Shown here: positions 9,695 to 45,960 of the stretch, piece by piece
How the letters are laid out: each line of letters opens with the position of its first letter
Numbering within the stretch: the stretch's first letter is position 1
Source: Candidatus Hermodarchaeota archaeon
Lineage (GTDB): Archaea > Asgardarchaeota > Hermodarchaeia > Hermodarchaeales > Hermodarchaeaceae
NCBI GenBank assembly: GCA_016840065.1
Contig: JAEOTB010000115.1
Coordinates: forward strand, 1-51,111
Reading direction: 5' to 3'
DNA: 51,111 nt
Program-made: the position numbers and the translations under genes
The notes under the pieces: model-generated
Database searches by the model: none
Told to the model about the DNA's origin: nothing
The model's input: only the letters and a program-made list of their open reading frames with translations

Positions 9695-9827
9695 TAAATA
9701 ACAAGAAATCTGAATCTAGTTGAGATTCTCATCCCTGCCTCCTTTATGTTGCCTCCTTCGTAAAGGTTTTTTAGTTTACTTGGTTGGTTTCTTCCAAACG
9801 TGGACTACGCACCGAGGCTACTTGCTG

Positions 9828-12800
9828 ATGTCTGAACATGGCTTTGAAGATGGTGACACTCCCCCTCAGGCTCTAGAAGGTGCGATTTTTCAGGACCCTG
9901 GTTCACCAGGTATTAGAGGAAAGATAAGTTTCTCTTTATCATATGTTCTCCTAGGCCTTCGCCGCAGAAAAACACGTTCCATCAGCCTCCTCCTCGGCGT
10001 TTTAATTGGCGTAGCCCTAGTCTCGTCGGTTTTTGTGTGGACAGACACAGGTGCTCGTGTTTCCACTTATGATTATATTCACTCACAAAGTTTCCATTAT
10101 TCTTGTGTCCAGCAACCACAAATGCCAGTAGACCCTGAGGCAATCCTTCCAATTCAAGGGTTTGTGGATAGTCATCCTACTACTGAATCCTCCCATATCA
10201 TCTATTGGACTATTTGTGTCATCAACCCTGCAGGTGTAATCTCCACTGATATTTACCAGCCTTGGCCTTACCTTGACAATCCTGCTTATCCTCAAAGGGT
10301 CAACCGAAAGGATTGTAGTGCATTATTTGTCGATGACGCGTTTCTTTCAGCTGCAGAACAGTCATTCACGTTCACTGGAGCCTCCCAAATCGACCAGAAC
10401 TCAATACTAGTAAGCCAAGAAGTTGTTAACGATGCGCTATTCTATTTCGGTATGCCAATAGCAATCGGGGACACCATTGACATAGCTGTTGCTCGAAACT
10501 ACGACGGCCCGCAGATAGGAACCATGGAGGATCCTTTGCTTTATGGTGATTTAGATACATTTCTTCTTGAGAACCTAGAGGTTGTTGGCATCTATGACAT
10601 CGAGCCAAGAAATGATATCATGCAACAAGCTATCCCTCAATTGGCTCGTCAAAATTTTGGACCGTTCAGTGGAGTAGAGAATATCTTTGGTTGGAATGAT
10701 GGTATTATCCTCCACCAAGACCTCCTAACCCCAGACAATCGCAATGAGATTGTACGTGAGACACGCTTCCCACGTCTCTTAGTTAAATTATCCTATACTG
10801 GCATTTTTGTACAAGGACTGGATTTTGCGATGGAGATAATTGAATCTACCTTCGGTCAAATCGAGTCAAACTATCGGGTATCAATCAGGGGGCGTCTTGA
10901 GCTTATGGAGCTCGGGGAGTTCATTACAGCTTACAAATCAAGACAGAGCATGATTATCATCCTGTCTCCAATAACAATGCTAAGTGTTTTGTTCACCGCC
11001 TTCGCCTCAACATTGTTCTTAGGAGGTCGAAAATCGGAGTTAGCTCTCCTGCGGTCAAGGGGCGCTAGTTTTCAACAGCTGTATGGAACTCTCCTCCTGG
11101 AATTCGCTATCCTAGCTATTCTTGGACTAGTTCTAGGCAACATGCTAGGTATTGTTATTGGGTGCTTACTCCCATCGTCGACGAGTTTTCTCCAATTCGA
11201 CCTCGATATCTTTTTCCGATTCCTTGCCTTGGCTAATACATCGCCAATCGCCTGGGTAATAGCAAGCAGCATTTGTATAGCACCTTCACTCGCATTTACT
11301 ATTATCACTACAAGATCATTTCTTCACTCTGAATTGTATAGTGCAATTCGTGGAGTTACAGGCCGCGAGTGGTTTAGCTTTAGGACACAGGCCCTATACA
11401 TTCTTGGAACTTGTCTGTTGTTTCTCCCCCTCACTGTCTTTGTACAGTTACTCCGTGTCGAACACGAAGCCGCTGCAGCTTTCGCGTTAGGGGTTTTCGT
11501 TATGACAGTCATTCTTTGGGGCTTACTCTGTGATGTCAGTGCCCGACTGGTTCGCCCCGGTGTTTCAGGTCTTTCACGAATCTTTCGACCCCTTTTCGGT
11601 CAAAAGAGCACAATCTTTGCTAAGAGTGTACGAACACGAAGGCACCGGACTATTCCATTAATGATGATTATGACGCTTACCTTTTCAGTCACAATCTTTT
11701 CAGCCGTTGAAGCCCAATCCTATGACGGCTACATTACACAACAAGTGAAATACTTCATGGGTGGTGACATTCGCATTTATAGTGACCAAGTTCCTGCTTC
11801 TGCGGTGTGGCAGGTATTGAACATACCTGGAATTGATGCTGCCACTGCGGTAATAATGAGAGAGTCTTTCACAGCAACAGAGGATATACTGCTAATCGGT
11901 ATTGATCCAGTAGCTTATGCCCAAACAGGAAACTGGGACTCAACGAGTATGCCCGGATTAGACCCCTACAGTGTACTGCAAGCTCTTGAGACTATGCCAG
12001 ATGCCATAATATTCCCCCAGCACATCGCGAATGCAATAGACCGACATACTGGAGACCAAATAGCAGTCACAACCACTTATATGACAGGTTTTTACACACC
12101 AGCCAGTAACATCAAGACTTTCACTATTGTTGGCGAGGTATACTCAGCGCCTGGTTTTGGGTTTGCTGATGCTGATGACCCTGCTGTAACCCCGACGCCC
12201 TACCCTGGATACGGCTTCCAAGAGAGTAACACCTTTGCTTTCTGTCACATCAACTACTTCCTTTATGAGCTGCCATCTCAAGGAGCGATGGGTGAAATTG
12301 ATGACACGTTCCTTTTCTTCGCTAGTGTTGAGCCTGGAACTGACCGCGAGCAAGTCTTTGCAACCGTTCAAGCACTAGGGTTTACTAGAACAGCGTGGTC
12401 CTCACACTCCTTAGATATTGAGGCGATGTATCCTGGTGCTCACCTCTTCAGCGGCGGTGTGATTAGCCTCCTCTCAATGAGTTTTGTGGCCGCTCTTGCT
12501 CTGGGGCTACTATCCTTGACAGTTTTCGTCAACGTAATGGTTTCAGGCAGAAAGACAGAATATGCTATTATGCGAGCCATCGGAGGCACACGAGGTCAAG
12601 TGACTGCAATAGTTGTTGGCGAGTTTGCGGGTCTTATTCTCGCTACATTCTTTCTTGGTCTCTTGCTCAGCTTTGGATTCTCTTGGCTTCTAATGAACAC
12701 CTTGATCAAGCTCTTCCCACTACCAACGGTACTGCCGTTTGTAATCGTTTGGCCATTACTATTGTTACTGGGGTTAGTGCTCCTTGTTATAGTCGGAATG

Positions 12801-17548: not shown

Positions 17549-18529
17549 GTGAAGCGTCTTCCTACACTAGTTCTTTATCATCCAGCGATGGCTGAAGAGG
17601 GCTACCCTGTCCTAGCTGGTCGTGTACAGCAAGCTTTTGACTACTTGGAAGAGACCGGGACTTTGCAGGCGTCTCAGGTGATTCATGAGGAGGCGCGGCA
17701 GGTAGACAGTTCACTACTGAACCGAGTGCATACTGAACGCCATATAGCAGGCGTTGGGCGTACCAGTTATGATTTTGCGTCTCGACTCTCAGCAGGTGCA
17801 GCGGTTAGGGCGGGTGAAGCGGTGTGGACTGGTGAAGCGGCTAACGCTTTTGTGTTCACAGGTTGTGCTGGACACCATGCCAGCCGCGACTCAGCCTGGG
17901 GCTTCTGCTACTACAATAACACAGCGTTGCTGGTTCGCCATCTCCAAAAGGCTCATGGCGTTGAGCGTTTCTTCGTTGTAGACACCGATCCACACACGGG
18001 TGACGGCACTCGAGATACTCTTGGCGAGGATTTGGGTGTGTACCATCTTAATTTCTATGCGGCATTCGGGGAGGGTGAAGAGCCCGAGTCAACTCGCCAA
18101 GTTGATGTTCCCTTTCCAAGCAATTGTGGTGACGCGTCGTTTGTTGAGGCGTTACGTAGGTTAGCAACACCCCTCGCAAAAGAGAGTAGAGCTCAGATGA
18201 TTCTTTGGAACATGGGACATGACGCCCATGCCATCGATTATGGTGGCTTCCAGCTTTCGCTTCACGCTTTCCCAGAAATGACAAAACTTCTTCTAGCATT
18301 GGCCGAGGAAGTGTGTCAAGGGCGTTTTATTGTGCTGCTTTCTGGTGGGTCTGAGGAGTACGTCGCCCGTCACACTATCTCGAGTATTATTCGACACCTA
18401 GCAGGGCTTTCCCCCCTCCCTGCTGATACTGGTGAGGAGCCAGCACCTGACACTCCTGAAACTGAGCGGACTGCCCGGAAGCTTGTTGAGAAAATCATCA
18501 CAGAATTAGGTTTCGACACCGAAGAATGA
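17549..18529 (+). CDS. Histone deacetylase family (Zn-dependent deacylase)
   Basis: GHHA....GFCYYNN, DTDPHTGDGT and GHDAH..D motifs. Confidence 0.9.
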   Translation: MKRLPTLVLYHPAMAEEGYPVLAGRVQQAFDYLEETGTLQASQVIHEEARQVDSSLLNRVHTERHIAGVGRTSYDFASRLSAGAAVRAGEAVWTGEAANAFVFTGCAGHHASRDSAWGFCYYNNTALLVRHLQKAHGVERFFVVDTDPHTGDGTRDTLGEDLGVYHLNFYAAFGEGEEPESTRQVDVPFPSNCGDASFVEALRRLATPLAKESRAQMILWNMGHDAHAIDYGGFQLSLHAFPEMTKLLLALAEEVCQGRFIVLLSGGSEEYVARHTISSIIRHLAGLSPLPADTGEEPAPDTPETERTARKLVEKIITELGFDTEE

Positions 18530-18532
18530 AGG

Positions 18533-18994
18533 CTAGGATGTGGTGCCGACTTTCTCCCAGGCTTGGAATTTTCCTCGGGCGCGCTGAACAAGGACGAGTC
18601 CATATCGTTTCCAGATTTCTTCACGAGTTAAGGATTCCTCCTCAGAGGGCGTACTGCTTGAAGGTGGAGTGTGTTCCTCGGGTCTGATGGACTGGCTATA
18701 GAATATAGAATCAATTAGGTTACCAACGAGCCCTTGCTGGTACTGATCCTTGACGAAGATGAGTATCTGTTCCGTGGGAACATCCACTGGCTGCAGAGGG
18801 TGACGAGTAACGCCCTGGCTGAATGAGGGGCAGACGCCACTCATCGTTTCTTTGACAATCTCGATACAGTTTGGGTCGATGAAGAACTGGCATGTCAGGC
18901 ATTGTCGCCATCCTGCGTGGATAGCTTCTTCAAGGTTGATTTTCTTACCACAAGCAACGCAAGATATGCCGACGGTGCTCAAGTCTATTTTCAT
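18533..18994 (-). CDS. RING-variant zinc-finger protein (Nse1-RING-like), last gene of SMC operon
   Basis: C12-x2-C15-x16-C32-x2-C35-x4-D40-x2-C43-x11-C55-P-x8-H65. ATGA overlap with the KITE gene. Confidence 0.6.
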   Translation of the reverse strand: MKIDLSTVGISCVACGKKINLEEAIHAGWRQCLTCQFFIDPNCIEIVKETMSGVCPSFSQGVTRHPLQPVDVPTEQILIFVKDQYQQGLVGNLIDSIFYSQSIRPEEHTPPSSSTPSEEESLTREEIWKRYGLVLVQRARGKFQAWEKVGTTS

Positions 18995-19650
18995 CGGCTC
19001 TCACCGTCTTCTGAACCCTTTGATGAAGTTGTGCCTACTAGGTAAGTGGCGGCTGTACTGGCGATAGCCTTTCGTCGTTCTGCGTCAAACTCGAGTTCAG
19101 TCCTGGGCCCGTAGGCTATTCGGTTTGTGCTACGTTCAATGTAACCAAGATCCGCGAGGCGCCGGAGTATTCTATCCAGTTGATAACGAGAAAGGCGACC
19201 ACGCGTTACCAATGCTGCATCTAGTTCCTTCGGAGTTGTCTTTCTTGCCCGTCTCCGAGCTCCAGCATTTTCTATAGCCGCGATAATCACTCCTAGCACA
19301 GCATATTCGGGATCGGTTAGTTCGCTAGGAACTCCGTATAGTGTGCGCAGACAGTAACGAGTCTCCCGACCAAGCCGATATTCTACGAGTTCCAACCCTA
19401 GTGGAGTGATATGCTGCCGAAGTAGGCTGAAGAGCTGATTGAGCCCATCACGGTTCGTGTGCAGGGCTTCTAGTAAATCCTGTTGCTTAACACCGATGTT
19501 GAGCTGACTTTCACCGTCACGCCAACGGGCGGTGAGGGCTGCGAAGAGCTGACCAAGTAGATGCTGTTGAGCGCGTTCCTCACTTTCATCGACACCCCGG
19601 TCGGCAGTATCAACTGAGGACTCGTCTCTAGGAGTAGGTTCTTCTGTCAC
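18991..19650 (-). CDS. KITE (tandem winged-helix) protein, Nse1/Nse3-MAGE-like
   Basis: LRQHITPLGLELVE, LGVIIAAIE, LDRILRRLADLGYI and YGPRTELEF (cf. MAGE/Nse3 WGPR..E). Lies in the SMC operon. Confidence 0.75.
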   Translation of the reverse strand: MTEEPTPRDESSVDTADRGVDESEERAQQHLLGQLFAALTARWRDGESQLNIGVKQQDLLEALHTNRDGLNQLFSLLRQHITPLGLELVEYRLGRETRYCLRTLYGVPSELTDPEYAVLGVIIAAIENAGARRRARKTTPKELDAALVTRGRLSRYQLDRILRRLADLGYIERSTNRIAYGPRTELEFDAERRKAIASTAATYLVGTTSSKGSEDGESR

Positions 19651-19655
19651 TTCTA

Positions 19656-20510
19656 CTATTGAACCTCCTGACGGCGCCTAGACTCTACTGCCACAGCAGC
19701 AAAAGAGACTTCATCTGTTTTCCGCTTTGAGGGGCGAAAGGCGATGATGGATTTTCCAAGGAAGGAGGCGGATATTCCTCCATCCCTTATCATCTGACTA
19801 AGAATATCAAGTTCCCAATTCGTTAACAGCTCTGCCAGCTCGTCTATCGAATACCGCTTACCCTCAAGCTGGGCTGTGAGTTTTTCCCGGAGACCTTTCA
19901 GCTCTTCTTGGAGGAGCTGGTCGTAGGCTACCTTATGCCGAGCTAGATCCGCTCGGTCCTCAGGAGTCGACACTACACTGCTTGCCAAGGGGTTATCCCC
20001 GTCAGGCATTGTGAATTCAGGTGCAATGATTTCTCGACTCGGTAAGAATACCAAGGGCGTTGCCCGGCGTTTAACTTCTGTGGCGAAGCGGCTAATCCAG
20101 ACCTCTGGTGTTACATCAATCGCTGCAAGGACCGCGTCTCTCTGTAATTGCATCTTGGCCATATTGAGATAGCAGCGTCCGTCCAGCACATGTTCCCAAG
20201 GTGTTTCGACGAAACGATAGGCTTCAGATACTTCTTCTCGGTCACGCTCTGACTCTCTAATCTCGAAAACCTCTTGGTCCTTTAGAGCCTTCTCATACTT
20301 CTTCGATAGATTCCAAAGAGCCATCACGATACCCTTTACAACTTGCTCTTGTTTATCTGGGCTAAGCGGACCTGTTCTGTTTTGAAGCCTGTAAGATGAT
20401 AAGCTCTCAAGGGGGCAGCTTCTAGAGCAGGGCTCGTCTGCGCCGCATCTTCGGCGACACATCTCCTCCAAACTTTCCTCTGATTTCTTGGAGAGTTTCT
20501 TGTTGCGCAT
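19656..20510 (-). CDS. Putative kleisin (Nse4/ScpA-like)
   Basis: Lies between SMC and KITE, with a TAATG overlap with the SMC stop. N-terminal helices, a linker and a C-terminal winged-helix-like segment (YSIDELAELL...ILSQMIRDGGISAS). Assignment rests mainly on context. Confidence 0.55.
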   Translation of the reverse strand: MRNKKLSKKSEESLEEMCRRRCGADEPCSRSCPLESLSSYRLQNRTGPLSPDKQEQVVKGIVMALWNLSKKYEKALKDQEVFEIRESERDREEVSEAYRFVETPWEHVLDGRCYLNMAKMQLQRDAVLAAIDVTPEVWISRFATEVKRRATPLVFLPSREIIAPEFTMPDGDNPLASSVVSTPEDRADLARHKVAYDQLLQEELKGLREKLTAQLEGKRYSIDELAELLTNWELDILSQMIRDGGISASFLGKSIIAFRPSKRKTDEVSFAAVAVESRRRQEVQ

Positions 20511-23434
20511 TAGCGCTCCACTTCCCCTTTGATAAGCACGATATGGTTCATACTAGCTGGAATTTCTAAACCAACTGTCGAGGGCGCCATGAGAATGAAT
20601 TGTGGGTCTACGGTTAGATTCATTCGACTTAGCTCTAATGCCCGCTGAACAATACTGAGTACAGCAGCACGACTTGCCTCATCGAGACGCTGAGTGAACT
20701 CGTCGATGACATGTAGAGGGCTTTTTGCAAGCGTATGGAGTGCAAGGATGAATGTTTGTGTACCGAGAATCCTCTCTCCACCACTCATGTTTTCATAGGT
20801 TCGCCAAGCATCTTCCTTATTGATAGCTATTTGGATGAACAGCTCAGCACGACTTGGCTCATTCGGGTATCTTACCGTTAGGCGTACCTGTTTTAGGAAA
20901 TGGCTGAGGAGTTTGTTCATTCGCTGGTTTAGACGCTCTAGGGTTTCTTCTAGACGGCGACGCCATTCGATTATTCTTCTTTGGACATCCCCCATCAGAT
21001 TGTCAAGGTGGCGTTTGCGTTCTGCAAGATATTCTTGGAGTTGGCGTACTAATTTTTCCTGCTTTTCATAAGCCTGTCTGTCCTCTGCGGTGGCACGAAT
21101 CGTTTCAATCATCGCTTGAACTTGGATTTGTTCTTCTCGCACTTGGTTAGGAAGCCTTACCATGTCGGGTCTTGGACCTTGGGCTTCAGCTGCCTGTTGC
21201 TGTTCTTTAACTTGATTGCTTAGGTGGTTGTGTTCCTCCTCTCTGTCTCGAAGGTCTCGTGTGAGTCGTTCAATCTCGGATTCGAGTCTGTATCTTCGGT
21301 TATCCAGATTTCTTAGTTGTTCCTCAACTCTGTTGAGACGTGGGATGACCTTTGATAGTGAGTTGTCACACCGGCGATATTCCTCATCTATCCCATCAAG
21401 ACTACTACCCAATTCTGCAATTTGTTGTTCTACATCATCAATGTGCCGCTGCAAATCTGCTACCAAGATATCTCGGTCATCACCGGTTGAGCGGGCTGTT
21501 TCCGGGTGACGAAGCTCTTGAAGACGAATCTTGATCTGACTAATGTCTGAATTAACCTTCATACGATCTAAGCCGAGTACTTGTTCCTGACGCCGTAGCG
21601 CCGCTAACTTGCTTATCACACTACTTGTATCATCACCGAGACGAATTTCACGGAGCTCCCTACCCAGAGAGACTGTCACAGGCGGAGGTGGTCTGGTGAA
21701 CGCACCGATACGCAGGTAGTGACTAGCGCCATCGCTTGTGATGATATTTCCACGTAATCTTTGAGCTGCATCCGCGAGCAGATTAGGGTCTGATGCTTCG
21801 GCAACAGCGGTGTTGATAACGCGGTTTAGAAACATAACCACTCTAGGCTCTCCCTGAATGAGGTCGGCTGCCCAGCCAATGACGGGGGGAGAGATTGTGG
21901 GTCTGCGGCGGGGTTCAGACTCTTCTGAGTGGGCTCTAGCAACAAGTAGGTTTGGTTTCCGGTCTGACCAAAGACGGTCAAAAATCTCCTTAGCGCTACT
22001 AAACGCTTCACGATTGAGAGCAAGGAAAGCGTAAGCATAACGTCCTAGAGCTAGTTTCACGGCGAGTTCATATCTCTCCTGTCCTCTCTTCATCCTTATT
22101 AGAGAGAATAGGGGGCCAAGCACCTTTCGTCCAAGAGCAGCTTCGTCAAGTCCATGGCGAAATTGCTTGCAAGCGCGTAAAATCTCCGCTTCACGGCGTG
22201 AATGCCTCTGGGGCTCAACCGTAAGTTCCTCTTCTGTTGAAGCGATTTGCTGCCTAAGTGAAAGCTGCCTTTTATCCAGTTTGTCTCGCTCAGCGATGAG
22301 TTCTGCTAGTTCGGATCGGAGTGTGTCCTCCTGAAGGGAGGGTGTTTGGGTAATATCTGGTTGAGATGAGCGATAACGGGTTATCCTTGAAATAGCTTCC
22401 TTGAGTTCACTGTCGAGGGCACTTCTCTTGCCGCGCGCTTCCATTTGCTGGTCCCGAAGCACAGTCATGGTGTCTCGCAGTTTCGTCCGCTGAGAGAACA
22501 GGTCACGACGCTTCTCACTGAGTTCTTCCCGACGAGTGTCTAGCTTCTCCATCTTGGACCGCTCAGTTTCCAGACCAGTCTTCGTTTCATTAATGGAGGT
22601 TTCGAGCTGACTGATGAGCTGCTCACGGTGTACGACCTCAGCCCAAGCAGCCTCAACTGTCAATGCTTGAAACCGTTCTTGTAACTTCTGCTTCTGCTCA
22701 TAGGCCTCGAAAGCAGTTTTGAGAATCTGAAGACGTTGTTCCTCTCCACGGATTCGCTGCTGAAGTGGCGTAACATTGGATCGTGCCTGGACCACAAGCA
22801 ACCGCGCCTCTTCTAATTTCTCCATCCAATCATTAAGCCCTGTCTCGTTCAAGAGGGTCTCAAACTTCCTACGAGGTGTCTGGGATGCGAATTGGTCCAG
22901 TGTTTCCGCCTCTGTAACTGCAAGAGGTGAATCACCAAACACTCCCGCTGCCTGGAAGAGTTGACGAATATCCTGTCGACTTATTCGGCGCCCCTTGATT
23001 GTTCGCTGATTATTAACCCAGAGAGAAATCGTGTTGCTGGGGAGGATGCGCAGGCGGATTGATACCGTGTCTTGGTCGAGGAGCTTATTCATCTCCTTCT
23101 CGGGACTTCGCAAGAGACGACGTTCAGCGATGACTGGGTTGTTGAGTTCTAGAATAACCTCAGCGTACTTGTCGAAGGGACCGATGAATTTGATGTTACG
23201 TTGACGCTGAACACGTTTTGATTCTAAACCAATGATTAGTAGCAACGCATCAAGAATCAGGGTTTTACCACTGCCATTAGACCCTGTTATCAGAGTAATT
23301 GGTGAACGGTCTAGATGAACCGTTGTATCTCGATGAATGACAAAATTGACCAGCCTAATACTTCGAAAAACCATGCGAGTGGCGGGTGGGGATTCAGCTG
23401 CCGGAGAGGACGCCACCGCTTCTTTACTGGTCAT
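20510..23434 (-). CDS. SMC-family ATPase, Smc5/6-like
   Basis: IRLVNFVIH, Walker A GSNGSGKT, two long coiled coils, hinge VLGPLFSLI...AVKLALG, signature MSGGER, Walker B SPLHVIDEFTQRLD and QFILMAP (no His, as in Smc5/6). Confidence 0.88.
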   Translation of the reverse strand: MTSKEAVASSPAAESPPATRMVFRSIRLVNFVIHRDTTVHLDRSPITLITGSNGSGKTLILDALLLIIGLESKRVQRQRNIKFIGPFDKYAEVILELNNPVIAERRLLRSPEKEMNKLLDQDTVSIRLRILPSNTISLWVNNQRTIKGRRISRQDIRQLFQAAGVFGDSPLAVTEAETLDQFASQTPRRKFETLLNETGLNDWMEKLEEARLLVVQARSNVTPLQQRIRGEEQRLQILKTAFEAYEQKQKLQERFQALTVEAAWAEVVHREQLISQLETSINETKTGLETERSKMEKLDTRREELSEKRRDLFSQRTKLRDTMTVLRDQQMEARGKRSALDSELKEAISRITRYRSSQPDITQTPSLQEDTLRSELAELIAERDKLDKRQLSLRQQIASTEEELTVEPQRHSRREAEILRACKQFRHGLDEAALGRKVLGPLFSLIRMKRGQERYELAVKLALGRYAYAFLALNREAFSSAKEIFDRLWSDRKPNLLVARAHSEESEPRRRPTISPPVIGWAADLIQGEPRVVMFLNRVINTAVAEASDPNLLADAAQRLRGNIITSDGASHYLRIGAFTRPPPPVTVSLGRELREIRLGDDTSSVISKLAALRRQEQVLGLDRMKVNSDISQIKIRLQELRHPETARSTGDDRDILVADLQRHIDDVEQQIAELGSSLDGIDEEYRRCDNSLSKVIPRLNRVEEQLRNLDNRRYRLESEIERLTRDLRDREEEHNHLSNQVKEQQQAAEAQGPRPDMVRLPNQVREEQIQVQAMIETIRATAEDRQAYEKQEKLVRQLQEYLAERKRHLDNLMGDVQRRIIEWRRRLEETLERLNQRMNKLLSHFLKQVRLTVRYPNEPSRAELFIQIAINKEDAWRTYENMSGGERILGTQTFILALHTLAKSPLHVIDEFTQRLDEASRAAVLSIVQRALELSRMNLTVDPQFILMAPSTVGLEIPASMNHIVLIKGEVER

Positions 23435-23750
23435 TTTGACTTGAAAACCCCTTCTGCCTTTTCAACCCGCTAATAAGTATTTAAGTCGACTTCTTTAACT
23501 TTCTCGTTTTACCTCTGGAACAACAGCTAGCAGGGTTTCCAGCGATTTCCTATTTTTATAAGCCTTTCCGAGGCGTACCTAAACCCAAAAGAACGGTACG
23601 AACCAGAGAACACTGATTGCGAGCGAAAGTGCGCCAACAGATTAGCAAACTGCTGATTAGACACGCTTGTCCAACGGTGTAACAGTTATCTGGACCCGTA
23701 AGATAAACTTAAAGTGGATAAAGCAACGCCAACCTTCTAGGTGATTACAC
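23435..23750. promoter_or_regulatory. Divergent promoter region for the SMC and Ubl operons
   Basis: TTAAATA on the minus strand (23478-23484) abutting the palindrome AAGTCGACTT (23483-23492). AGATAAACTTAAAG (23701-23714) and GGTGA (23740-23744) lie upstream of the Ubl ATG. Confidence 0.45.
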
Positions 23751-24074
23751 ATGACAAGCGATGAAGGCTTTTGGAGATCAATCATAGTTGACGTAGAACC
23801 CCGTCAGAAGGAGTTCCGCATCGGCATAGACGAAGACACCAGCATCGGAGAAGTCATCCGAACCCTAGTCACCCAAGCCCGTGATGAGGGTATTAGTGTG
23901 GATGAGTGGGCAAAGGCGAAAATCGGTGACCAACGAGCAGAGTTTGTGCTCATCCGGAAAGCACCTGAACCCACACGGCTCAGCCCCACCGCCACCTTTG
24001 GTGACTTGGAACCCAAAGTTGTCGATGATGAATTCTTCCTCATGGACGTGATCCCAGAAGTTGGAATTAAATAG
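23751..24074 (+). CDS. Ubiquitin-like (beta-grasp) protein with C-terminal VG-IK
   Basis: Beta-beta-alpha pattern (SIIVDV, EFRIGI, TSIGEVIRTL), FVLIRK, LSPTATFGDL (cf. Ub LEDGRTLSDY) and a terminal strand ending EVG-IK. Directly upstream of the E2. Confidence 0.75.
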   Translation: MTSDEGFWRSIIVDVEPRQKEFRIGIDEDTSIGEVIRTLVTQARDEGISVDEWAKAKIGDQRAEFVLIRKAPEPTRLSPTATFGDLEPKVVDDEFFLMDVIPEVGIK

Positions 24075-24104
24075 GCTCTATCATGATTTGGATACGGGAA
24101 GCAC

Positions 24105-24854
24105 ATGACTCGAGCAGTTTTTTCTACGGAATTATTCAACGCGCGTGTGGAAACACAGATACAAACCTTCTTCGACACTATGGCCAATCTCTACGGGCAG
24201 CGAGGTTGGTCACCTGAACAGCCTAGGCGCCGAGATTTGAAGTGGGAAACCGAAGACTTCACAGTAGAGATTAATGGTCGTTACCGGGATGGTGCCTACA
24301 AGCAGTTTCACTTCACTATGCGGAACCTCCCAGGATACTTCCGTTGCCCTGGATCTCTCACCGACCCGAATGCTATCCGATGGGAACACCGCTTTTCCTT
24401 CGACTTACCCCGTGAGTATCCACAGAATATTGGGTCTATCCGTCCTTCAGCTGAAACCCCCCTTTATCATCCACGGCTATCCGCAGGCGGGAAAGGACTT
24501 GCCTGCTACTCGGTTAGAGGAGAGCTAGACCGCATCCTTGAAGACCTACCCTTCTTTGTATTACTCAAACCTGATCGTGTTGAGCCGCCATCCCGTTTTT
24601 CCTCTGACCATGGGTTGAATACCCAGGCTATGCATTGGTACGAGCGAAACGCCGATGGGATTGTGGCAACCCTCGAACGTCTTTGGAGAGAGCGCCATAA
24701 AGATCCAGACACATCAGAAGGTGAAAGGCGTAGTGGGCGCGTACAAATCATTACCTCTCCACGGGAAGCTCAACCCGGTCGTCGGAGCCCACGTATCCTT
24801 GATGAAAAGGAGCATCAAACTGGGCGAATCAGAATTTTAGATGATGAAGATTAG
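24105..24854 (+). CDS. E2/UBC-fold ubiquitin-conjugating-like enzyme
   Basis: FSFDLPREYP, TPLYHPRL (HPN variant), GLAC with Cys134, and LNTQAMHWY. Disordered C-tail. Confidence 0.8.
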   Translation: MTRAVFSTELFNARVETQIQTFFDTMANLYGQRGWSPEQPRRRDLKWETEDFTVEINGRYRDGAYKQFHFTMRNLPGYFRCPGSLTDPNAIRWEHRFSFDLPREYPQNIGSIRPSAETPLYHPRLSAGGKGLACYSVRGELDRILEDLPFFVLLKPDRVEPPSRFSSDHGLNTQAMHWYERNADGIVATLERLWRERHKDPDTSEGERRSGRVQIITSPREAQPGRRSPRILDEKEHQTGRIRILDDED

Positions 24855-24870
24855 AGGTGCCTCAAGCATC

Positions 24871-25143
24871 ATGCCAAGTCGGTCTCCAAAGGACGAAGAA
24901 GAAGCTGAAGAAACAAGAACTGAACAGCCAGCGTCTGAACAAGATAGTGCTGAAGATACAGAGGAAGAGCAACTCGTCTTAGAGGAGGAAGACACGTCAC
25001 AGGCCCATCGTAGTCGGATTGTCATATTGGGAGAGAGGGACATCCCCTTCGAAGAGGAGCGACCTCCGAACCTCTTGCCAAACTTTCAAGTGAAGGTTCA
25101 TCGAGTGAGCAGACCAGAGAAGCCAAGGGAGGTTGGACTTTGA
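24871..25143 (+). CDS. Small acidic disordered protein
   Basis: Glu-rich ORF filling the gap between E2 and RING, with a TTGA overlap with the next gene. Alternative start at 24841. Confidence 0.6.
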   Translation: MPSRSPKDEEEAEETRTEQPASEQDSAEDTEEEQLVLEEEDTSQAHRSRIVILGERDIPFEEERPPNLLPNFQVKVHRVSRPEKPREVGL

Positions 25144-25535
25144 GTGTCCATGGTGCAGCACAGGTTAAGTGCGCGATTTGCGATGACGCCGTTTCACTAG
25201 AAAATGCACGGTTGGACTGGTGGATTTGCACCAGTTGCGGAAGCTATTTGTGTCCGCGATGCCACACACTGTTTACTAGGAGTGGTGATGAACTCTGCCC
25301 TGGAACTATAGTTCGAGGAGCTGAGCCGCACCAACCCCATCTCACGCGATTCCTTTCGCCTCGACCTAATCCAGAACCGCCAGCACAACATGGTAGCCCC
25401 TCTGTTCGTATCTTGGAAGATGTTCCTCGTCGACCAAGCCCAAAGCCTGGAGGCAGGGTAATCTTTCTTGATGACAGAGAGCCTGGAGAAGAGGAGCGAG
25501 AGACTAAAACACAAGATGATGAAGATGCCGGCTAA
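25140..25535 (+). CDS. RING-variant zinc-finger protein (candidate E3)
   Basis: C11-x2-C14-x15-C30-x2-C33-x4-C38-x2-C41-x11-C53-P-x9-H64, followed by a Pro-rich/acidic tail. Confidence 0.68.
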   Translation: MSVHGAAQVKCAICDDAVSLENARLDWWICTSCGSYLCPRCHTLFTRSGDELCPGTIVRGAEPHQPHLTRFLSPRPNPEPPAQHGSPSVRILEDVPRRPSPKPGGRVIFLDDREPGEEERETKTQDDEDAG

Positions 25536-27120
25536 CTTACCTGTCCAAATGGAGATTTCCGCCCCTTCCCGAGCCAAGGGTTTACCTCTTGTGAAGCCGA
25601 AAGAAAGTGTAAAAATTGTCCTAACGCGCTCCTTTACTGGTCAAACAGGCGAGTATGCTAATGGTGTTATATTCGTTCGCGACCCATTCGGAACCAATAT
25701 CGCTAGGATACCTTTCAAATTCGGTGAATTTACTAAAGGGACTTTTACTGTTCAGATAAAAGAGGAACTTCTTTCAGGAATCTACACGGCTGCAGTAGCT
25801 TTCGAAGGGGAAAAGGACCTCACCAGCGCTAGAGGAGGATCTGGCGAAGCGCTATTTGGCTGCTTCCGAGTAGAAAAAGGCCTCCCACCAATCATCTCGC
25901 ACAAGGTTACCTACAAGGCTAAAATAACGAATGAGGGAGGCAGGCAGGATGACTACGGGAAAGGCACTTCGGGTGGTATCGACCTCTTCGATGTATCGGT
26001 GTTTCTTGCTACACCAATTTCGATTCCTTTTCGCCAAGAAGTTATCAAACTTAGACCTAACCCTTCAACAGGCGCAGAATCCAATGACTTGGTCGGTAAT
26101 AATTGGGTTCGTTATAGTTTGAAACATTTAGCCTTTGGTAAGAGCTTTACATGTGGCTATACTGCTCTAGTCCGGAATCACTCTGTAAGATATGCGCTTC
26201 CTCCAGTGAGTAATGCTGCAATCCCTCATGAGATCAGGGATTACACTAAGCCAGAGAAGCATATCGAGTCTGATCACCGTCGCATAAAGGAGATGGCTAA
26301 CCAATTAGCAAAGACCTATCGAAATCATAGCTCCTTTGTTGCTGCTGCCATGCGAACTGTCTTTAGAACCTTGAAATATAAGCCTCAACGTTCAGAGCTG
26401 GGAGCCGCTTATGCAATAGCGAATAAGATAGGCGATTGCACGGAATATGCCGCGCTTACCGCTGCCCTTTGTCGGGCAAATGGTATTCCAGCAAGACTTC
26501 AAGCGGGTTTCGGATTTGGTGGAGCCACGTGGGAACGCCACGCGTGGGCTGAGGTTTGGCTCCAAGGCTTCTGGGTCCCTGTAGACTCCACTTGGTATGG
26601 TCGTGACGGAACTCTGGGCATAACAAGCCGTCACATCCCTTTGATTGTTGGAAATTGGATGAGCAGCCGTATCCGCCAAGAATTCAACATTCGCTGGAAG
26701 ACCAAAGGAGGGAGAGCTAGTCCGCCAACTTTAGATGCGAAATGGAAGGTTGAGCGACTGAGTTCTACCCGCGCCGCACCTGGACCTCGCCTGAGGCCTT
26801 CACCTATTCGGCTTAGGGTCAAAGCACCAGATGCTGTACCTCGTGGCACTCTTCTGAAACTTGGCATCAAGATCAGCCCGGTCCCAAAGGTTTCCGCAGC
26901 TCTGACTATGATGGCGATATCTGCTACAATTTCCGATAGCGAGATGGACCGCATCGTTGCGCTGAAACCGATTCCAATAAGCATTTCTAAGCCAATGGAT
27001 ACAACCATGGAGTTACAGATGCCCCGTTGCATTCCCAAAGCAAAGCTCTCCCTTAGAGTTTGGCTCGACGGAAAACCCACAGAAGCAACGTGGGAAAAAG
27101 CTATTGGATTAATCCAATAG
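25516..27120 (+). CDS. Transglutaminase-like (Cys-His-Asp) protein with flanking beta-sandwich domains
   Basis: GDCTEYA.L..ALCRANGIPARL, HAWAEVW and WVPVDST. No obvious signal peptide. Confidence 0.9.
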   Translation: MMKMPANLPVQMEISAPSRAKGLPLVKPKESVKIVLTRSFTGQTGEYANGVIFVRDPFGTNIARIPFKFGEFTKGTFTVQIKEELLSGIYTAAVAFEGEKDLTSARGGSGEALFGCFRVEKGLPPIISHKVTYKAKITNEGGRQDDYGKGTSGGIDLFDVSVFLATPISIPFRQEVIKLRPNPSTGAESNDLVGNNWVRYSLKHLAFGKSFTCGYTALVRNHSVRYALPPVSNAAIPHEIRDYTKPEKHIESDHRRIKEMANQLAKTYRNHSSFVAAAMRTVFRTLKYKPQRSELGAAYAIANKIGDCTEYAALTAALCRANGIPARLQAGFGFGGATWERHAWAEVWLQGFWVPVDSTWYGRDGTLGITSRHIPLIVGNWMSSRIRQEFNIRWKTKGGRASPPTLDAKWKVERLSSTRAAPGPRLRPSPIRLRVKAPDAVPRGTLLKLGIKISPVPKVSAALTMMAISATISDSEMDRIVALKPIPISISKPMDTTMELQMPRCIPKAKLSLRVWLDGKPTEATWEKAIGLIQ

Positions 27121-27126
27121 GGAGTA

Positions 27127-27987
27127 TTACTTACGTTTGCTTCGACAAAACGCTTCGCTGCACCGTGGATTCCGCATTATAGGCCCACTAGTAGATTGAT
27201 GGTGGCGAAGATCGTACTTGATGAATCGCCCAAATGCAGGTTCAAGTCCTTCTCGCCAGTGATTGGTCTGCCTCCACTCCTCTAATCCAACAACAACCTT
27301 GGTTGCCTCCCAAGCCATTATCGCGCCAACAACTGAGGTTATGAAGCTTATCATGGGGAACTTGGGTAATGTGTCGACAAAGAAAGGGTCACAACTAGCG
27401 CGCACCTGCTCTGCCACAAGTCTATCAACGAATTCTTTACTCCAAGAACAAACCATACAAGCAGTGTCTGGAGGTGTGAGGACCTCCACAGAAACGAAGT
27501 CTAGACCCATTGCTCCATTGATGACTGGGCGGGGTGGCTGAAGACTGAGGTTCTTGGCATTAAGCAGATACCTGGCGTAGTGGTTATCGACACCCACCAG
27601 AACAAGGTCAACATCCCACACCTTCTCTTTCGCTTCCTGAATGGGTACAGGATAGGGTTCTACAATAGTATCTGTTGCTAGTTCCCCGAGTCGTTCTGCA
27701 ACCGCATCTACCTTAAACTTCACATCATGGTCCCCAGGCCGGAAGAAAACGCACCGGTTTAGGTTTGAAGCAGCTACTTTATCTGGGTCGACGAGTAATA
27801 TTTTCCCGATGCCTAGCAGACCGAGATTCTTGCAGACCTCATTCCCCACGGCGCCAGCCCCGACCATGAGCACAGTTGCATTTTGTATTCTCACCAGGTT
27901 ATCGGTGCCTAGCCAGCGGCGTGTTCTGTCATGACGGTCACGTTCGAAGAATCCTAGGTCTACGCGTGTCGGAGGTTCCTCAGGCAC
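27127..27987 (-). CDS. E1-like (ThiF/UBA) activating enzyme
   Basis: GAGAVGNEVCKNL, SNLNR, GVDN..AR, Zn site CMVC...C..C, and candidate catalytic Cys199 (RASCD). Confidence 0.9.
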   Translation of the reverse strand: MPEEPPTRVDLGFFERDRHDRTRRWLGTDNLVRIQNATVLMVGAGAVGNEVCKNLGLLGIGKILLVDPDKVAASNLNRCVFFRPGDHDVKFKVDAVAERLGELATDTIVEPYPVPIQEAKEKVWDVDLVLVGVDNHYARYLLNAKNLSLQPPRPVINGAMGLDFVSVEVLTPPDTACMVCSWSKEFVDRLVAEQVRASCDPFFVDTLPKFPMISFITSVVGAIMAWEATKVVVGLEEWRQTNHWREGLEPAFGRFIKYDLRHHQSTSGPIMRNPRCSEAFCRSKRK

Positions 27988-27990
27988 GGT

Positions 27991-28629
27991 CTATACACCC
28001 CCTTCCAAGGAGCCCTCGAGCTCGTCAGATGGTACAGTGCCAACGGGGACCTTGGGGAGATATGTGCACCATTCTACGCGTTCTAGCTGTAATGCATCAC
28101 TTTCGTTTGAGCGGCGCAGCATGTAGACCTTGAAGAAACGGCTGAGAGGATCTATGAGGAAGAAAACATTACCTTCCGCACAAAAAGGGGTTTTAAAAAA
28201 TGTGTTAAGGTCGGTGGAGGAGAACTGAGGATTGCCGCCGAATGGATGAGAATGCCATAGACCAATGACTCGAGGCGTATGTGGATTTGACCCGTACCTA
28301 TCATGTAAGGCTAACCTGTATTCCAGGATTCCCTCCGGGGTGAACCTGGCATAGGTCATGCTCGATTCCACTTGTCCTGTTGCCCAATCTGTCACCCTGA
28401 CATATTTTGTGCCTTGCCATTGACGACGAAAACCGAGAATCACCCCAAGTGCCTCATGCGGGGGTTTGCGTTGCGCCTCTCGTAGACAATAGTCGAAGAT
28501 GTCCTGACAAGTCCGTTCGTAAATATAGACTGGGTAGACCGTGTCCTCTGATAGCGCATCCTTTTCTTTTGTCTGTGTTTCTGGAGGTGGTTGAGATGGG
28601 GCTCGGTCTGGCAAATTCCTCTTCTCCAT
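27991..28629 (-). CDS. JAB/MPN+ (JAMM) metallopeptidase
   Basis: E59 (HEALG) and WHSHP-x-SSTD (H126, H128, S137, D140). Confidence 0.9.
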   Translation of the reverse strand: MEKRNLPDRAPSQPPPETQTKEKDALSEDTVYPVYIYERTCQDIFDYCLREAQRKPPHEALGVILGFRRQWQGTKYVRVTDWATGQVESSMTYARFTPEGILEYRLALHDRYGSNPHTPRVIGLWHSHPFGGNPQFSSTDLNTFFKTPFCAEGNVFFLIDPLSRFFKVYMLRRSNESDALQLERVEWCTYLPKVPVGTVPSDELEGSLEGGV

Positions 28630-30095
28630 CAGTTCTCTTTGTTCCCTAATCTAGTGCTCCAAGGGTAACGTTGCATTATGTTATCTATTAGCCGGTTCAC
28701 TTTCTCCTCTTCTGATGTTTCAGAATAAGCCAAGAATATTACTTGACCGCCACGGCTTCGCTTCATCTTCTGATATATCGTCTTGGTGGTGTTCACTACA
28801 TCGCAGATTATTAGGAGGTCGGTTTCTGGGAGGTCGAGGTCGCGTTCGCCGACAGGAGAGAGGATGATTGCCGCTGGGGGTTGGGCTGCTTTGAACTCCG
28901 CTAGTACTGCTTGTTTATCTCTGGTTCGTCCAGTAAGGGTAAAGGACTGTACTCCAGCCCTGCTGAGGAGACGGTTGACCTCAGAAACAACATGGAGATA
29001 TGAGCTGATGATAACGGTTTTACCACTCATATTTACGAGCTGGCAGACCTTGAGGGCCTTTGGTGTGACCTTTGGCCATTCACTCTGAATTCGCTCGACA
29101 TCAATCTGAGGTGCGAGAGCTGGGTGGTGAAGAAACCTACGGAAGCTGCTAACCGCCATGCCGTAGAGATACTTACGAATCATTAGCAGACCCGAATAGC
29201 GTTGAGCCAGCTCTTCAGAGATTGGCAGCTCGTCAAGGACAAGGTGGAGAAGACGGACTGACTCGGGTAAAGCGTCAGATTCGATGTCTCTTTCCTCTCT
29301 CACTATCTGATATATTTCATCCCTAGTTGACTTGATTAAGGCGTCCAATACAAGGGAAATCGCCTTGATGAGGTTGTCCTGAACCGCTACGACATTGATT
29401 ACTGTTGGCTCAATGTAGTCCTCCACATCGGAGCCGCTCAGCTCATCCATGGAGATTACTTCCGCCCTAGGGATGAACTGACTAAGCGTTTTCAGCTCCT
29501 CTCGTATCTGAAGTTGAGCATTATCAAGGACCACATGATCATCACGGAGCGTACCCGACATCCCTATTATCCAGCGATCCTTGAAGAACTCAAGTAGATA
29601 GCTCCAAGGTTGTACTAGAACGTTCTGCCGCCCCACACGACGAAGAATAGTGTCAACCTCGTTTATTACAAGGGCATCAAATTGCTGGGGCGTGAATTCT
29701 CCTCTTTTCAGTATGTTAGTGAGTACCCTCGCAGTACACAATACCACCCTCGATTTTTCCAGCATCCACCGCCGTTGCCGACCCTGCACTCGTTGGGTCA
29801 TTGCCCCCAGCCCTGAAACCCCTCCATACTCCTTCTCTAAATATTGAGCTGTTTCTTGCAGCGAGGAAGTGGAATTCACTGTCAAGATGAAGCGCGTTTC
29901 AGGAAACAGCTCCGAGACGAGTTTGTAGGTAAGAACACGTTTCCCTAACCCGCAATCCAATTCAATGAGTATGTTCTTGTCTCGATTTTCCTTGATGCGC
30001 CGAAGAATGTATTCTTGGTATCCCCGTAAGTCTAGTTTGCTAGTTCCTGGTGAAGCAGGTTTTGAGGGAGACCTTCGGGGTTGTGGCATCATCAT
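28629..30095 (-). CDS. SF2 Hef/FANCM-like helicase with degenerate ATPase motifs
   Basis: LRGYQ, DCGLGKR, INEVD, GMSGT, SPVGERDLDLPETDLLI and YQKMKRSR. One-base overlap with the JAB start. Confidence 0.75.
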   Translation of the reverse strand: MMMPQPRRSPSKPASPGTSKLDLRGYQEYILRRIKENRDKNILIELDCGLGKRVLTYKLVSELFPETRFILTVNSTSSLQETAQYLEKEYGGVSGLGAMTQRVQGRQRRWMLEKSRVVLCTARVLTNILKRGEFTPQQFDALVINEVDTILRRVGRQNVLVQPWSYLLEFFKDRWIIGMSGTLRDDHVVLDNAQLQIREELKTLSQFIPRAEVISMDELSGSDVEDYIEPTVINVVAVQDNLIKAISLVLDALIKSTRDEIYQIVREERDIESDALPESVRLLHLVLDELPISEELAQRYSGLLMIRKYLYGMAVSSFRRFLHHPALAPQIDVERIQSEWPKVTPKALKVCQLVNMSGKTVIISSYLHVVSEVNRLLSRAGVQSFTLTGRTRDKQAVLAEFKAAQPPAAIILSPVGERDLDLPETDLLIICDVVNTTKTIYQKMKRSRGGQVIFLAYSETSEEEKVNRLIDNIMQRYPWSTRLGNKEN

Positions 30096-33381: not shown

Positions 33382-34035
33382 TTAGAAGAAGGAGAATCTT
33401 TCTTGGGCTTTTGATGTGGTGTCGCATTTTGTTCGTTTTTCTGTGATTTTATTCCACATTGCCCGTGTGATGAGTTGGAAGATTTCGGTGATTCCTATAT
33501 CATCTTTAGCGCTGGAGGCATTGTAGCTTACAAGGTTGTGTTTGTTGACGAGTTCTTTTGCGAGTTCGTCGTCGAAACATGCGATGTCGCATTTCGTCCC
33601 GACCAATATAACTGGGATGTCGTTTGTGTGTTTGCGTACGAGTTCAAGCCACTCCTCTAGGTTGAAGAATGTTCTAGGTCTGGCAGAGTCGAAGGCGAGA
33701 ATGCAGCCATGAGATCCTTCACAGAATCTTGGAACGAGGAACCGGAAACGCTCCTCGCCAGCGAAATCCCAAATAGAGAGTGTGATTCTTTCACCATCTA
33801 GTGCCACATCTTTAATTGCAAACCCAGTTCCAATGGTCATTTGACTTGGTATGTAGGATCCACATACGAACCGGTTGATCATTGTTGTTTTACCGACACC
33901 ACCATCCCCTAGTAGCATCAGCTTGAAAATCGCTTTTCGTTCTTTTGCTGATTCAGTCTTGGATTCCGAACCTCCATTCAAACCGGTCACCAAGGAGTGT
34001 ACAGATAACTCCATCTGTTCTAACGATTGCGGCAT
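33382..34035 (-). CDS. Rab-like small GTPase
   Basis: G1 GDGGVGKT, G2 TIG, G3 WDFAGEERFR, G4 TKCD and G5 SAK. Confidence 0.92.
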   Translation of the reverse strand: MPQSLEQMELSVHSLVTGLNGGSESKTESAKERKAIFKLMLLGDGGVGKTTMINRFVCGSYIPSQMTIGTGFAIKDVALDGERITLSIWDFAGEERFRFLVPRFCEGSHGCILAFDSARPRTFFNLEEWLELVRKHTNDIPVILVGTKCDIACFDDELAKELVNKHNLVSYNASSAKDDIGITEIFQLITRAMWNKITEKRTKCDTTSKAQERFSFF

Positions 34036-43850: not shown

Positions 43851-43864
43851 ACATTGGAAACGAA

Positions 43865-45396: not shown

Positions 45397-45960
45397 TCAG
45401 GTTCCTGAATGGATACCTTGGCATTTGTTCCCTCTATGATAATAACAGCCTTGACACTGACTACCCGACCACACCCGATCGATAGCTTCTCGAATCCTCG
45501 TGATAGCAACAGGATTATTAGTCGTGAAGCCGACCTCGAAGTTGCGACGAGCTTTGCTTCGCATTCCCAGACCAGCTCCTGTGAGGTTTGCAGAGCCAGC
45601 ATACGCAAACCTATCGTCGACAACAACTAGCTTCATATGTTGCCGACCACAAAAGGCGAAATGAATATCGTCTCTGCTACTAAGCTCTTTGAAGACAAAG
45701 GATTTCTGGGCACCATCATGAGCGAGGAAATAGAACTCGACACCTTGCTTTCCTTTTTCTTTCACGATGTCTGAAAACCTCATTTTCATGCCACGGTATT
45801 CAAGATAAGGGTTCTTCAGGTTAGCCGTCGCTACTAAGACAAGGCGTTGGGCTTTTAGCAGCCCATCCCGCATAACCTTCTGATAGATGTCCCAGTCAAA
45901 ATGTAACTTGAAGGTTTCACCAATCATTTCAGAATCGCCATAACCGAATCTTGAATTCAT
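45397..45960 (-). CDS. Single-domain phospholipase D-like (HKD) protein, possible nuclease
   Basis: HMKLVVVD...GSANLT...NFEVG, with a C-terminal CQGC.....C. Start at 45960 or 45927. Confidence 0.85.
   Translation of the reverse strand: MNSRFGYGDSEMIGETFKLHFDWDIYQKVMRDGLLKAQRLVLVATANLKNPYLEYRGMKMRFSDIVKEKGKQGVEFYFLAHDGAQKSFVFKELSSRDDIHFAFCGRQHMKLVVVDDRFAYAGSANLTGAGLGMRSKARRNFEVGFTTNNPVAITRIREAIDRVWSGSQCQGCYYHRGNKCQGIHSGT

Follow-up and report, generated by a model that had tools for sequence, protein, structure and literature searches.

Are a structural maintenance of chromosomes (SMC) complex and a ubiquitin-like modifier (Ubl) conjugation cascade parts of one machine when their genes lie side by side? 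This question is raised by a locus at positions 18,533-30,095 of contig JAEOTB010000115.1 (assembly GCA_016840065.1) from a Candidatus Hermodarchaeota archaeon; the whole stretch of 51,111 nt that was analyzed is called the window in the following. The linkage of the two sets of genes, which a preliminary description of the locus had put forward, was borne out by three different gene orders across Asgard archaea and Planctomycetota, by a conjugating enzyme (E2) that was almost never found without the SMC, and by retention of both sets in genomes in which the genes are scattered. Judged from these distributions, the SMC and Ubl modules look like one functional unit. With moderate confidence, we propose one machine made of two modules, a Smc5/6-type SMC complex with a RING-like subunit and a private Ubl cascade, which would serve genome maintenance in Asgard archaea.

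Organization of the locus

The open reading frame (ORF) listing showed 12 genes in three tight runs at 18533-30095, and all 12 ORFs of the preliminary description were recovered at their coordinates. The genes and the divergent intergenic region are listed here together with the evidence for their assignment.

18533-18994, minus strand: znf153, a RING-like two-zinc finger of 153 aa (AlphaFold2 model and structural neighbors)
18991-19650, minus strand: KITE subunit of 219 aa with tandem winged helix (AlphaFold2 model and Foldseek)
19656-20510, minus strand: kleisin-position protein of 284 aa (position between SMC and KITE only)
20510-23434, minus strand: SMC ATPase of 974 aa with hinge (SMC_N and SMC_hinge)
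23435-23750, no strand: divergent intergenic region that has promoter-like elements toward both SMC and Ubl (conserved BRE/TATA-like boxes)
23751-24074, plus strand: Ubl of 107 aa that ends V-G and then I-K (conserved V-G, ESM-Atlas neighbors)
24105-24854, plus strand: divergent E2 of 249 aa (family profile against PDB, HPx...Cys)
24841-25143, plus strand: small acidic protein of 100 aa (ORF with conserved position after E2)
25140-25535, plus strand: RING131, a second RING-like finger of 131 aa (paralogy to znf153)
25468-27120, plus strand: transglutaminase-fold protein of 550 aa (Transglut_core)
27127-27987, minus strand: minimal ThiF/MoeB-type activating enzyme (E1) of 286 aa (ThiF)
27991-28629, minus strand: JAMM/JAB metallopeptidase of 212 aa (Prok-JAB)
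28629-30095, minus strand: superfamily 2 (SF2) helicase-like protein of 488 aa (ResIII and Helicase_C)

The first run, on the minus strand, comprises znf153, KITE, the kleisin-position gene, and SMC; znf153 and KITE overlap by 4 nt, and the kleisin-position gene and SMC by 1 nt. A divergent gap of 316 nt separates its SMC side from the Ubl side of the second run, which carries the genes for Ubl, E2, the acidic protein, RING131, and the transglutaminase-fold protein on the plus strand. The third run, with helicase, JAB, and E1 on the minus strand, is convergent with the second, and 6 nt lie between the stop codons. Domain or fold evidence backs 10 of the 12 genes, namely those for SMC, KITE, the two RING-like fingers, Ubl, E2, E1, the JAMM peptidase, the transglutaminase, and the SF2 helicase.

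Linkage of the SMC and Ubl modules across two domains of life

Species-representative genomes were scanned with an SMC alignment and then with iterated hidden Markov models for all 12 families, and co-occurrence was counted in 400 Asgard and 301 Planctomycetota genomes. The E2 family was present in 32 of the Asgard genomes, and 31 of these also contained the SMC family. In Planctomycetota, 14 genomes contained the SMC; the E2 was found in 13 genomes, and all 13 were among these 14. The reverse dependence was not observed, as the core of SMC, kleisin-position gene, KITE, and zinc finger gene (znf) also occurred without this E2 (28/31 genomes of family f4, 3/3 of family f18). The core is thus found without the E2, but the E2 almost never without the SMC. 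This asymmetry suggests that the cascade is accessory to the SMC complex, and it places the RING-like protein in the SMC core. Within Asgard archaea, the system was conserved nearly universally in three families (f1, 17/18; f21, 11/12; f4, 28/31).

The gene order was not uniform. In 17 of the 18 genomes of the window's family, all 12 genes were syntenic where the contig permitted, and the Hermodarchaeota retained the divergent layout. Two Heimdall loci (L059 and L097) instead contained one co-directional operon in the order SMC-kleisin-KITE-znf-JAB-E1-Ubl-E2-acidic, and a Planctomycetota locus (L098) had the order of this fused Heimdall operon up to the E2. The order SMC-kleisin-KITE-znf-JAB-E1 was found in Asgardarchaeum (L057), and matches to the same six gene families were present downstream of SMC in a further Planctomycetota locus (L086). 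The preliminary description had named unlinked SMC and Ubl operons in related genomes as evidence that would refute it, and such an unlinking did not emerge as the rule.

In five Planctomycetota genomes, single copies of SMC, KITE, znf, and Ubl-E2 were located on four different contigs. This scattered set appears to have been retained after the operon fell apart and to have been kept together without it. The Planctomycetota SMCs form one clade, which is the sister of the clade with the fused Heimdall operons (89% support in the Shimodaira-Hasegawa-like approximate likelihood ratio test).

Additional genes adjoin the SMC in some lineages. In the Planctomycetota locus L098, a gene with a NYN nuclease domain (9402-9992, plus strand) ends at the SMC start codon, and it has no counterpart in the Asgard loci. 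In the Heimdall family f4, a gene for about 1030 aa without a clear Pfam family lies directly upstream of SMC on the same strand (L065, 6781-9876, plus strand; L031, 6434-9538, minus strand); its product may be a lineage-specific extra subunit.

A second SMC and a second ubiquitin system in the same genome

The genome also contains a canonical SMC, which is encoded on another contig (C61) and scored 811 bits, over the curated cut-off; sister genomes contain a canonical SMC-ScpA-ScpB operon. In comparison with PDB sequences, the canonical SMC preferred Smc2, Smc3, Smc4, and Smc1, and Smc5/6 was not among the 60 matches listed. Likewise, contig C69 contains two canonical UQ_con E2 genes at a distance of 2 kb from each other (43618-43983, minus strand, and 45552-45848, plus strand). 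They probably indicate where the eukaryote-like ubiquitin cluster of Asgard archaea is located, apart from the cascade of the window. Because a canonical SMC, accompanied by ScpA and ScpB in the sister genomes, and UQ_con E2s are thus encoded elsewhere, the SMC complex of the locus is the second one in this genome, as is the private Ubl cascade.

The SMC module

The SMC matched SMC_N with 72.9 bits over residues 24-932 and SMC_hinge with 22.5 bits, at the cut-off, and its translation contained the ABC head motifs GSNGSGKT, MSGGER, and HVIDEF. Split ABC head, coiled coil, and hinge were therefore all found. For the canonical SMC equivalog models, its scores stayed far under the cut-offs, and as a single sequence the protein did not discriminate among SMC types. 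The family profile was more informative: among the eukaryotic SMCs in PDB, Smc6 ranked first (94 and 76 bits) and all others reached at most 54 bits (Smc3 54, Smc5 53, Smc4 45, Smc2 41), while archaeal Smc scored 97 bits. On this profile, the SMC provisionally fits the SMC5/6-related archaeal clade of van Hooff et al. (bioRxiv 10.1101/2024.01.07.573240). In all lineages examined, each locus had a single SMC gene and a single KITE gene.

For KITE, the AlphaFold2 model (predicted local distance difference test, pLDDT, 82) had a tandem winged-helix fold. Foldseek matched it to ScpB (6juv, E 3e-5) and to Nse1 (7dg2_A, E 3.6e-5, TM 0.48), and also to MAGE-G1/Nse1, JetB, and MukE; the KITE profile found only generic MarR-type winged helices among PDB sequences. 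The predicted structure establishes the protein as a KITE and fits both the Nse1/3-like and the ScpB-like type.

The kleisin-position gene, encoding 230-290 aa, was conserved between SMC and KITE in all loci. Its product had no match in Pfam, PADLOC, NCBIfam, the PDB profile search, or the Atlas features. An exhaustive HMMER search collected 84 clusters of the family among 1.84 billion representatives. None of the 66 members that were scanned matched a Pfam kleisin family, the comparison with the Hermodarchaeota ScpA alignment using hhalign was not significant (probability below 1%), and a word-indexed homolog search returned 17 unnamed proteins without Pfam domains. Of the SMC-kleisin-KITE-RING run in the preliminary description, the SMC was thus upheld by Pfam and the KITE and the RING-like fold by AlphaFold2 models, whereas the kleisin found no link in Pfam, PDB, or profiles.

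Two RING-like fingers

The AlphaFold2 model of znf153 had pLDDT values of 87-97 across residues 1-88. The best structural neighbors were nearly all RING, U-box, or SP-RING domains with Z scores of 4.2-5.5, among them TRIM37, Prp19, APC11, RBX1, Ring1B, and Mms21; Mms21 was found at Z 4.6-4.7 and was not singled out. The model thus points to a RING-like fold of the cross-brace-like two-zinc type, and the role as ubiquitin-type ligase (E3) is putative. In Pfam, both zinc proteins had weak zinc-finger matches only, which for RING131 was to zf-UDP, a RING-finger family. In every lineage, a znf gene follows 3′ of KITE, even where the Ubl cascade is missing. The joint prediction of two KITE copies with znf153 scored 0.44 versus 0.29 for the control; this is not specific and weighs neither for nor against an interaction.

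RING131 cross-matched and aligned with znf153 and is a Hermodarchaeota-specific paralog without the C-terminal domain, a conserved three-stranded beta unit at residues 122-150 of znf153. It keeps all Cys ligands and bears an acidic tail. At the fifth Cys ligand, the Hermodarchaeota znf153 reads F-I-D-P-N-C versus F-I-C-P-x-C in RING131 and in all other lineages. The Asp may reflect subfunctionalization after duplication, and the contrast between the two fingers may point to separate tasks of anchoring and E2 docking.

The Ubl cascade

The terminal V-G of the Ubl was invariant. Heimdall orthologs end with it, whereas 1-3 extra residues follow in Hermodarchaeota (I-K in the window). The Ubl gave no clear Pfam call, with a weak YukD match only, and its profile had no meaningful match among PDB sequences. 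All of its nearest ESM-Atlas clusters were ubiquitin-like superfold families (score 0.91). These neighbors are a lead rather than a fold determination, and they mark the protein as a candidate ubiquitin-like modifier.

The E2 had no Pfam match and did not reach the UQ_con model. The 32 PDB sequences that its family profile matched were without exception UBC E2 enzymes, with a best E value of 0.0028 and HPN...Cys aligned, and in the ortholog alignment H122, P123, R124, and C134 were invariant. UBC core, HPN-type motif, and catalytic Cys were thus all found, with weak scores. An in-frame TGA in the Heimdall E2 matches turned out to be merely the stop codon, which the match overran slightly.

The E1 matched ThiF with 123.4 bits, and its best NCBIfam models were ThiF/MoeB, in agreement with a ThiF/MoeB-fold adenylation domain. 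GAGAVG, the zinc cysteines CxxC and C-x4-C, and one more invariant Cys were kept across Asgard archaea and Planctomycetota. The JAB matched Prok-JAB with 40 bits; the Glu of EAxG and the motif HSHPFG...FS..D, which together provide the JAMM signature E...HxH...S..D, were invariant across six orthologs from both groups. The catalytic motifs of E1, E2, and JAB are intact. The acidic protein of 100 aa had no family match, and its gene lies directly 3′ of E2 both in Hermodarchaeota and in the fused Heimdall operon.

The E2 tail contains repeated R-I/V-x-I/V-I/L motifs. The tails of the E2, the acidic protein, and RING131 (24730-25535, plus strand) share the repeat R/K-I/V-x-I/V-I/L amid acidic residues, which resembles a SUMO-interacting motif (SIM), and three such SIM-like motifs were present in the E2 tails of both Hermodarchaeota and Heimdall orthologs.

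A further observation concerns the Ubl-E2 junction in Planctomycetota. The Ubl frame does not end at ...V-V-G; about 45 further residues follow, which correspond to the N-terminal helix of the E2 family, and the rest of the E2 is encoded in the -1 frame. The frame switch was found in five loci:

L098, 15890-16857, plus strand
L120, 4065-4999, minus strand
L121, 1862-2799, plus strand
L122, 9386-10335, plus strand
L123, 7391-8362, plus strand

It occurs on a run of A9-A10 in four loci; in the high-GC locus, it is found at C_CCT_TTC, after which TAG follows. The switch looks like a conserved programmed -1 frameshift or a transcriptional slippage that would produce a Ubl-E2 fusion protein.

Helicase and transglutaminase

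The helicase-like protein matched ResIII and Helicase_C. Both its motif I, GLGKR, and its motif II, NEVD, are degenerate but were conserved down to 33% identity, with NEID in the Asgardarchaeum ortholog, and the protein is probably an ATPase-impaired helicase scaffold under purifying selection. The preliminary description had seen in it a core partner similar to Mph1/FANCM, and this view was not supported. The helicase is translationally coupled to JAB only in the window's genus, and in the sister genus (g2) two genes on the opposite strand separate them. Heimdall orthologs with 41-44% identity were encoded on contigs other than that of the SMC locus, and no ortholog was found in two Planctomycetota genomes. 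From this distribution, the helicase appears to be peripheral.

A similar picture emerged for the transglutaminase, which matched Transglut_core with 72.8 bits. It is part of the operon only in Hermodarchaeota, adjoins SMC in one genome of another family (G027), and does not occur in the fused operons. A distance of 5-8 kb separates it from SMC in the Heimdall f4 clade; this was not counted as linkage because the intervening genes are unrelated transport and phosphodiesterase genes. The transglutaminase thus also appears to be an accessory, peripheral component.

Intergenic region and flanking genes

BRE/TATA-like boxes (TFB recognition element and TATA box) of the type GAAAGTTTAAG were conserved upstream of both SMC and Ubl across the Hermodarchaeota loci, and the region 23435-23750 looks like an ordinary archaeal promoter architecture. 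A special shared operator was considered for this region and rejected, as only these boxes were found on either side.

The flanking genes are housekeeping genes (histone deacetylase, HAD hydrolases, malic enzyme, Ras GTPase), no mobile-element genes were found among them, and the GC content of the locus equals that of its surroundings. The histone deacetylase-domain gene (17549-18529, plus strand) is convergent with znf153, with 3 nt between the ends; in the sister genus, an ORF of 326 aa, the length of the histone deacetylase gene, lies on the same znf side beyond one inserted ORF of 143 aa. A gene for a small GTPase of the Ras/Roc family, which is typical of Asgard genomes, is located at 33382-34035 (minus strand). 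The sequencing runs listed as carrying the region were three DNA runs from marine sediment, all from one study, and no RNA run.

Proposed mechanism and alternative explanations

The following mechanism is proposed for the single machine of two modules. The first module would consist of the SMC, presumably as a homodimer, the kleisin-position protein, KITE, and the dedicated RING-like fourth subunit. In the second module, the JAMM peptidase would trim the Ubl precursor (...V-G|I-K) and probably also reverse conjugation, the ThiF-type E1 would activate the terminal Gly of the Ubl, and Cys134 of the divergent E2 would carry the Ubl. The RING-like subunit and the Hermodarchaeota-specific RING131 could then jointly dock the E2~Ubl onto the DNA-loaded SMC complex. 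Targets would be proteins at the sites that the complex holds or its own subunits. Assembly, E3 activity, DNA dependence, and targets are parts of the mechanism that we infer.

Several results weigh against this proposal or limit what it can claim. The synteny in Hermodarchaeota runs into the flanking genes, and therefore it alone shows only vertical inheritance. Because the Planctomycetota SMCs form one clade, the co-occurrence in bacteria amounts essentially to one acquisition followed by retention, and the counts in both groups include related genomes, which are not independent samples. The name kleisin is positional only, as no sequence link to known kleisins was found. The structural matches of znf153 to RING-like folds were weak, with Z scores of 4.2-5.5 and Foldseek E values no better than 0.2; modest scores are expected for a domain of 70 residues. 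In Hermodarchaeota, Asp40 replaces one of the zinc ligands of znf153. Lastly, the NYN gene that abuts SMC in L098 hints at a conflict role in bacteria.

The last point leads to the best-placed alternative, an anti-plasmid or antiviral system, which we regard as unlikely. The SMC would recognize foreign or extrachromosomal DNA, for which Wadjet and eukaryotic Smc5/6 are the models, and the Ubl cascade would be the effector or regulator arm, as modeled on Bil and CBASS Cap2/Cap3. In its favor, the distribution in Planctomycetota is patchy (14/301) and fits one inter-domain transfer, but the near-universal conservation in the families f1, f21, and f4 is unlike that of typical defense systems. The NYN nuclease-domain gene directly upstream of SMC in L098 also speaks for this alternative, yet neither a nuclease nor another effector gene is present in the Asgard loci. 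PADLOC was applied to ten proteins, all except the acidic protein and the transglutaminase. The best matches were to CBASS-type E1-E2 and JAB models (for E1 and JAB) and to LmuB and JetC (for SMC); however, they were partial and generic, the seven other proteins, including Ubl, E2, KITE, kleisin, and znf, had none, and no match was found at the system level. Bil, CBASS type II, Wadjet, and Lamassu were all not represented, as the locus has no effector (cyclase, JetD, or LmuA). The housekeeping flanks, the lack of mobile-element genes, and the equal GC content also argue against this alternative. The preliminary description had offered an antiviral function as its second option; given the vertical conservation and the housekeeping flanks, this has become less likely for Asgard archaea, and a conflict role is more plausible in bacteria than there. 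A housekeeping role in Asgard archaea is favored because of the near-universal conservation in families, the housekeeping flanks, the missing effector gene, and the missing PADLOC system match. In Asgard archaea, the locus behaves as vertically inherited genome maintenance rather than as a mobile defense island, as far as its distribution and neighborhood indicate.

Also improbable, and ranked after the antiviral alternative, is a private switch, with the SMC complex as the sole target of the Ubl cascade, for example for unloading or turnover of the kleisin or the SMC. In eukaryotes, SUMO and ubiquitin are attached to subunits of cohesin and Smc5/6. The dependence of the E2 family on the SMC family, and not vice versa, would be expected for such a switch, and in the fused operons the JAB gene directly follows the znf gene. 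The SIM-like tails of E2, acidic protein, and RING131, however, suggest chain building or multivalent binding and do not discriminate between this switch and the proposed genome maintenance machine. That the locus combines two unrelated adjoining systems, or that E1 and Ubl belong to a sulfur-carrier pathway of the MoaD/ThiS type, is disfavored and very improbable: the E1 does score best against ThiF/MoeB NCBIfam models, the Hermodarchaeota synteny extends into the flanks, and the Ubl lacks a PDB sequence match, but the two modules stay linked across three gene orders and in two domains of life, E2 and SMC co-occur in 31/32 Asgard and 13/13 Planctomycetota genomes and are co-retained when scattered, and sulfur transfer involves neither a UBC-like E2 with HPx...Cys nor RING-like proteins nor a JAMM peptidase.

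Implications

No description of the SMC-Ubl linkage was found in full-text searches of the literature, and the preliminary description had likewise known of none. Among eukaryotic SMC complexes, Smc5/6 is the least understood, and to our knowledge no other has built-in ligases; the reason for this need is an open question. It is possible, and we propose it only tentatively, that a Smc5/6-type complex with RING-mediated ubiquitin- or SUMO-like tagging was already assembled in Asgard archaea, and that Nse1 and the reliance of Smc5/6 on ligases descend from it. If this is true, the tie of Smc5/6 to protein-tagging ligases would be older than eukaryotes and not a eukaryotic invention. This would matter for eukaryogenesis, as the preprint cited above holds the Nse1 RING to be a eukaryotic innovation, whereas a RING-like subunit is encoded after the KITE gene in several Asgard families. 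In a prokaryotic version, each subunit would come from a single gene, the cascade would be minimal and private, and lineages that have or lack it could be compared, so that reconstitution would make the question testable. Furthermore, the Planctomycetota that carry the system, and that kept the set after scattering, offer bacterial hosts in which genetics may be possible.

Comparison with known systems

Parts of the system recur in bacterial defense modules. E1, E2, JAB, and Ubl are shared with Bil, CBASS Cap2/Cap3, and 6A-MBL, and the SMC-kleisin-KITE architecture is common to Wadjet JetABCD and Lamassu. Like these modules, the system occurs in bacteria, there through horizontal transfer. It differs from them in that the locus has no cyclase, JetD/Toprim, or Lamassu effector and is vertically conserved in Asgard families. 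We know of no defense system that joins an SMC complex with a Ubl cascade.

The ubiquitin operons of Caldiarchaeum and Asgard archaea contain Ub, E1, UQ_con E2, a small RING protein, and Rpn11 (Nunoura et al. 2011, PMC3082918). The logic is shared, as the window also combines Ubl, E1, E2, a RING-type protein, and a JAMM peptidase in a prokaryote. In contrast to these operons, the E2 of the window is under UQ_con, the Ubl lacks a sequence match to ubiquitin, the E1 is a minimal ThiF protein of 286 aa, and the cascade is tied to an SMC complex, while the UQ_con E2s of the genome are separate.

Van Hooff et al. (bioRxiv 10.1101/2024.01.07.573240) described archaeal SMC5/6-related operons of the three genes SMC, kleisin, and kite, and reported that archaeal kites lack the Nse1 RING, calling it a eukaryotic innovation. 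As in the window, these are second SMC-kleisin-kite operons in Asgard archaea beside one of the condensin/cohesin type. The SMC family of the window may belong to their clade; in the window, the three genes are joined by a RING-like fourth gene and the Ubl cascade.

The closest comparison is with eukaryotic Smc5/6, whose holocomplex is composed of Smc5-Smc6, the kleisin Nse4, the KITEs Nse1 and Nse3, the RING of Nse1, and the SP-RING SUMO ligase Nse2/Mms21. There are clear differences. Smc5/Smc6 and Nse1/Nse3 are heterodimers, whereas the window has a single SMC gene and a single KITE gene, whose products are presumably homodimers. The RING of Nse1 is fused to the KITE, whereas the RING-like protein is encoded by a separate gene, and no Nse2-, Nse5-, or Nse6-like gene was found in the locus. 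Smc5/6 uses the general ubiquitin and SUMO machinery, while the system in the window has its own E1, E2, Ubl, and JAMM peptidase. Nevertheless, both are KITE-type SMC complexes with a RING-type subunit and a tie to ubiquitin or Ubl conjugation. The SMC family profile prefers Smc6 among the eukaryotic SMCs, the KITE model matches Nse1 and Nse3, and the domain order of Nse1, KITE and then RING, is the gene order of the window, KITE and then the RING-like gene.

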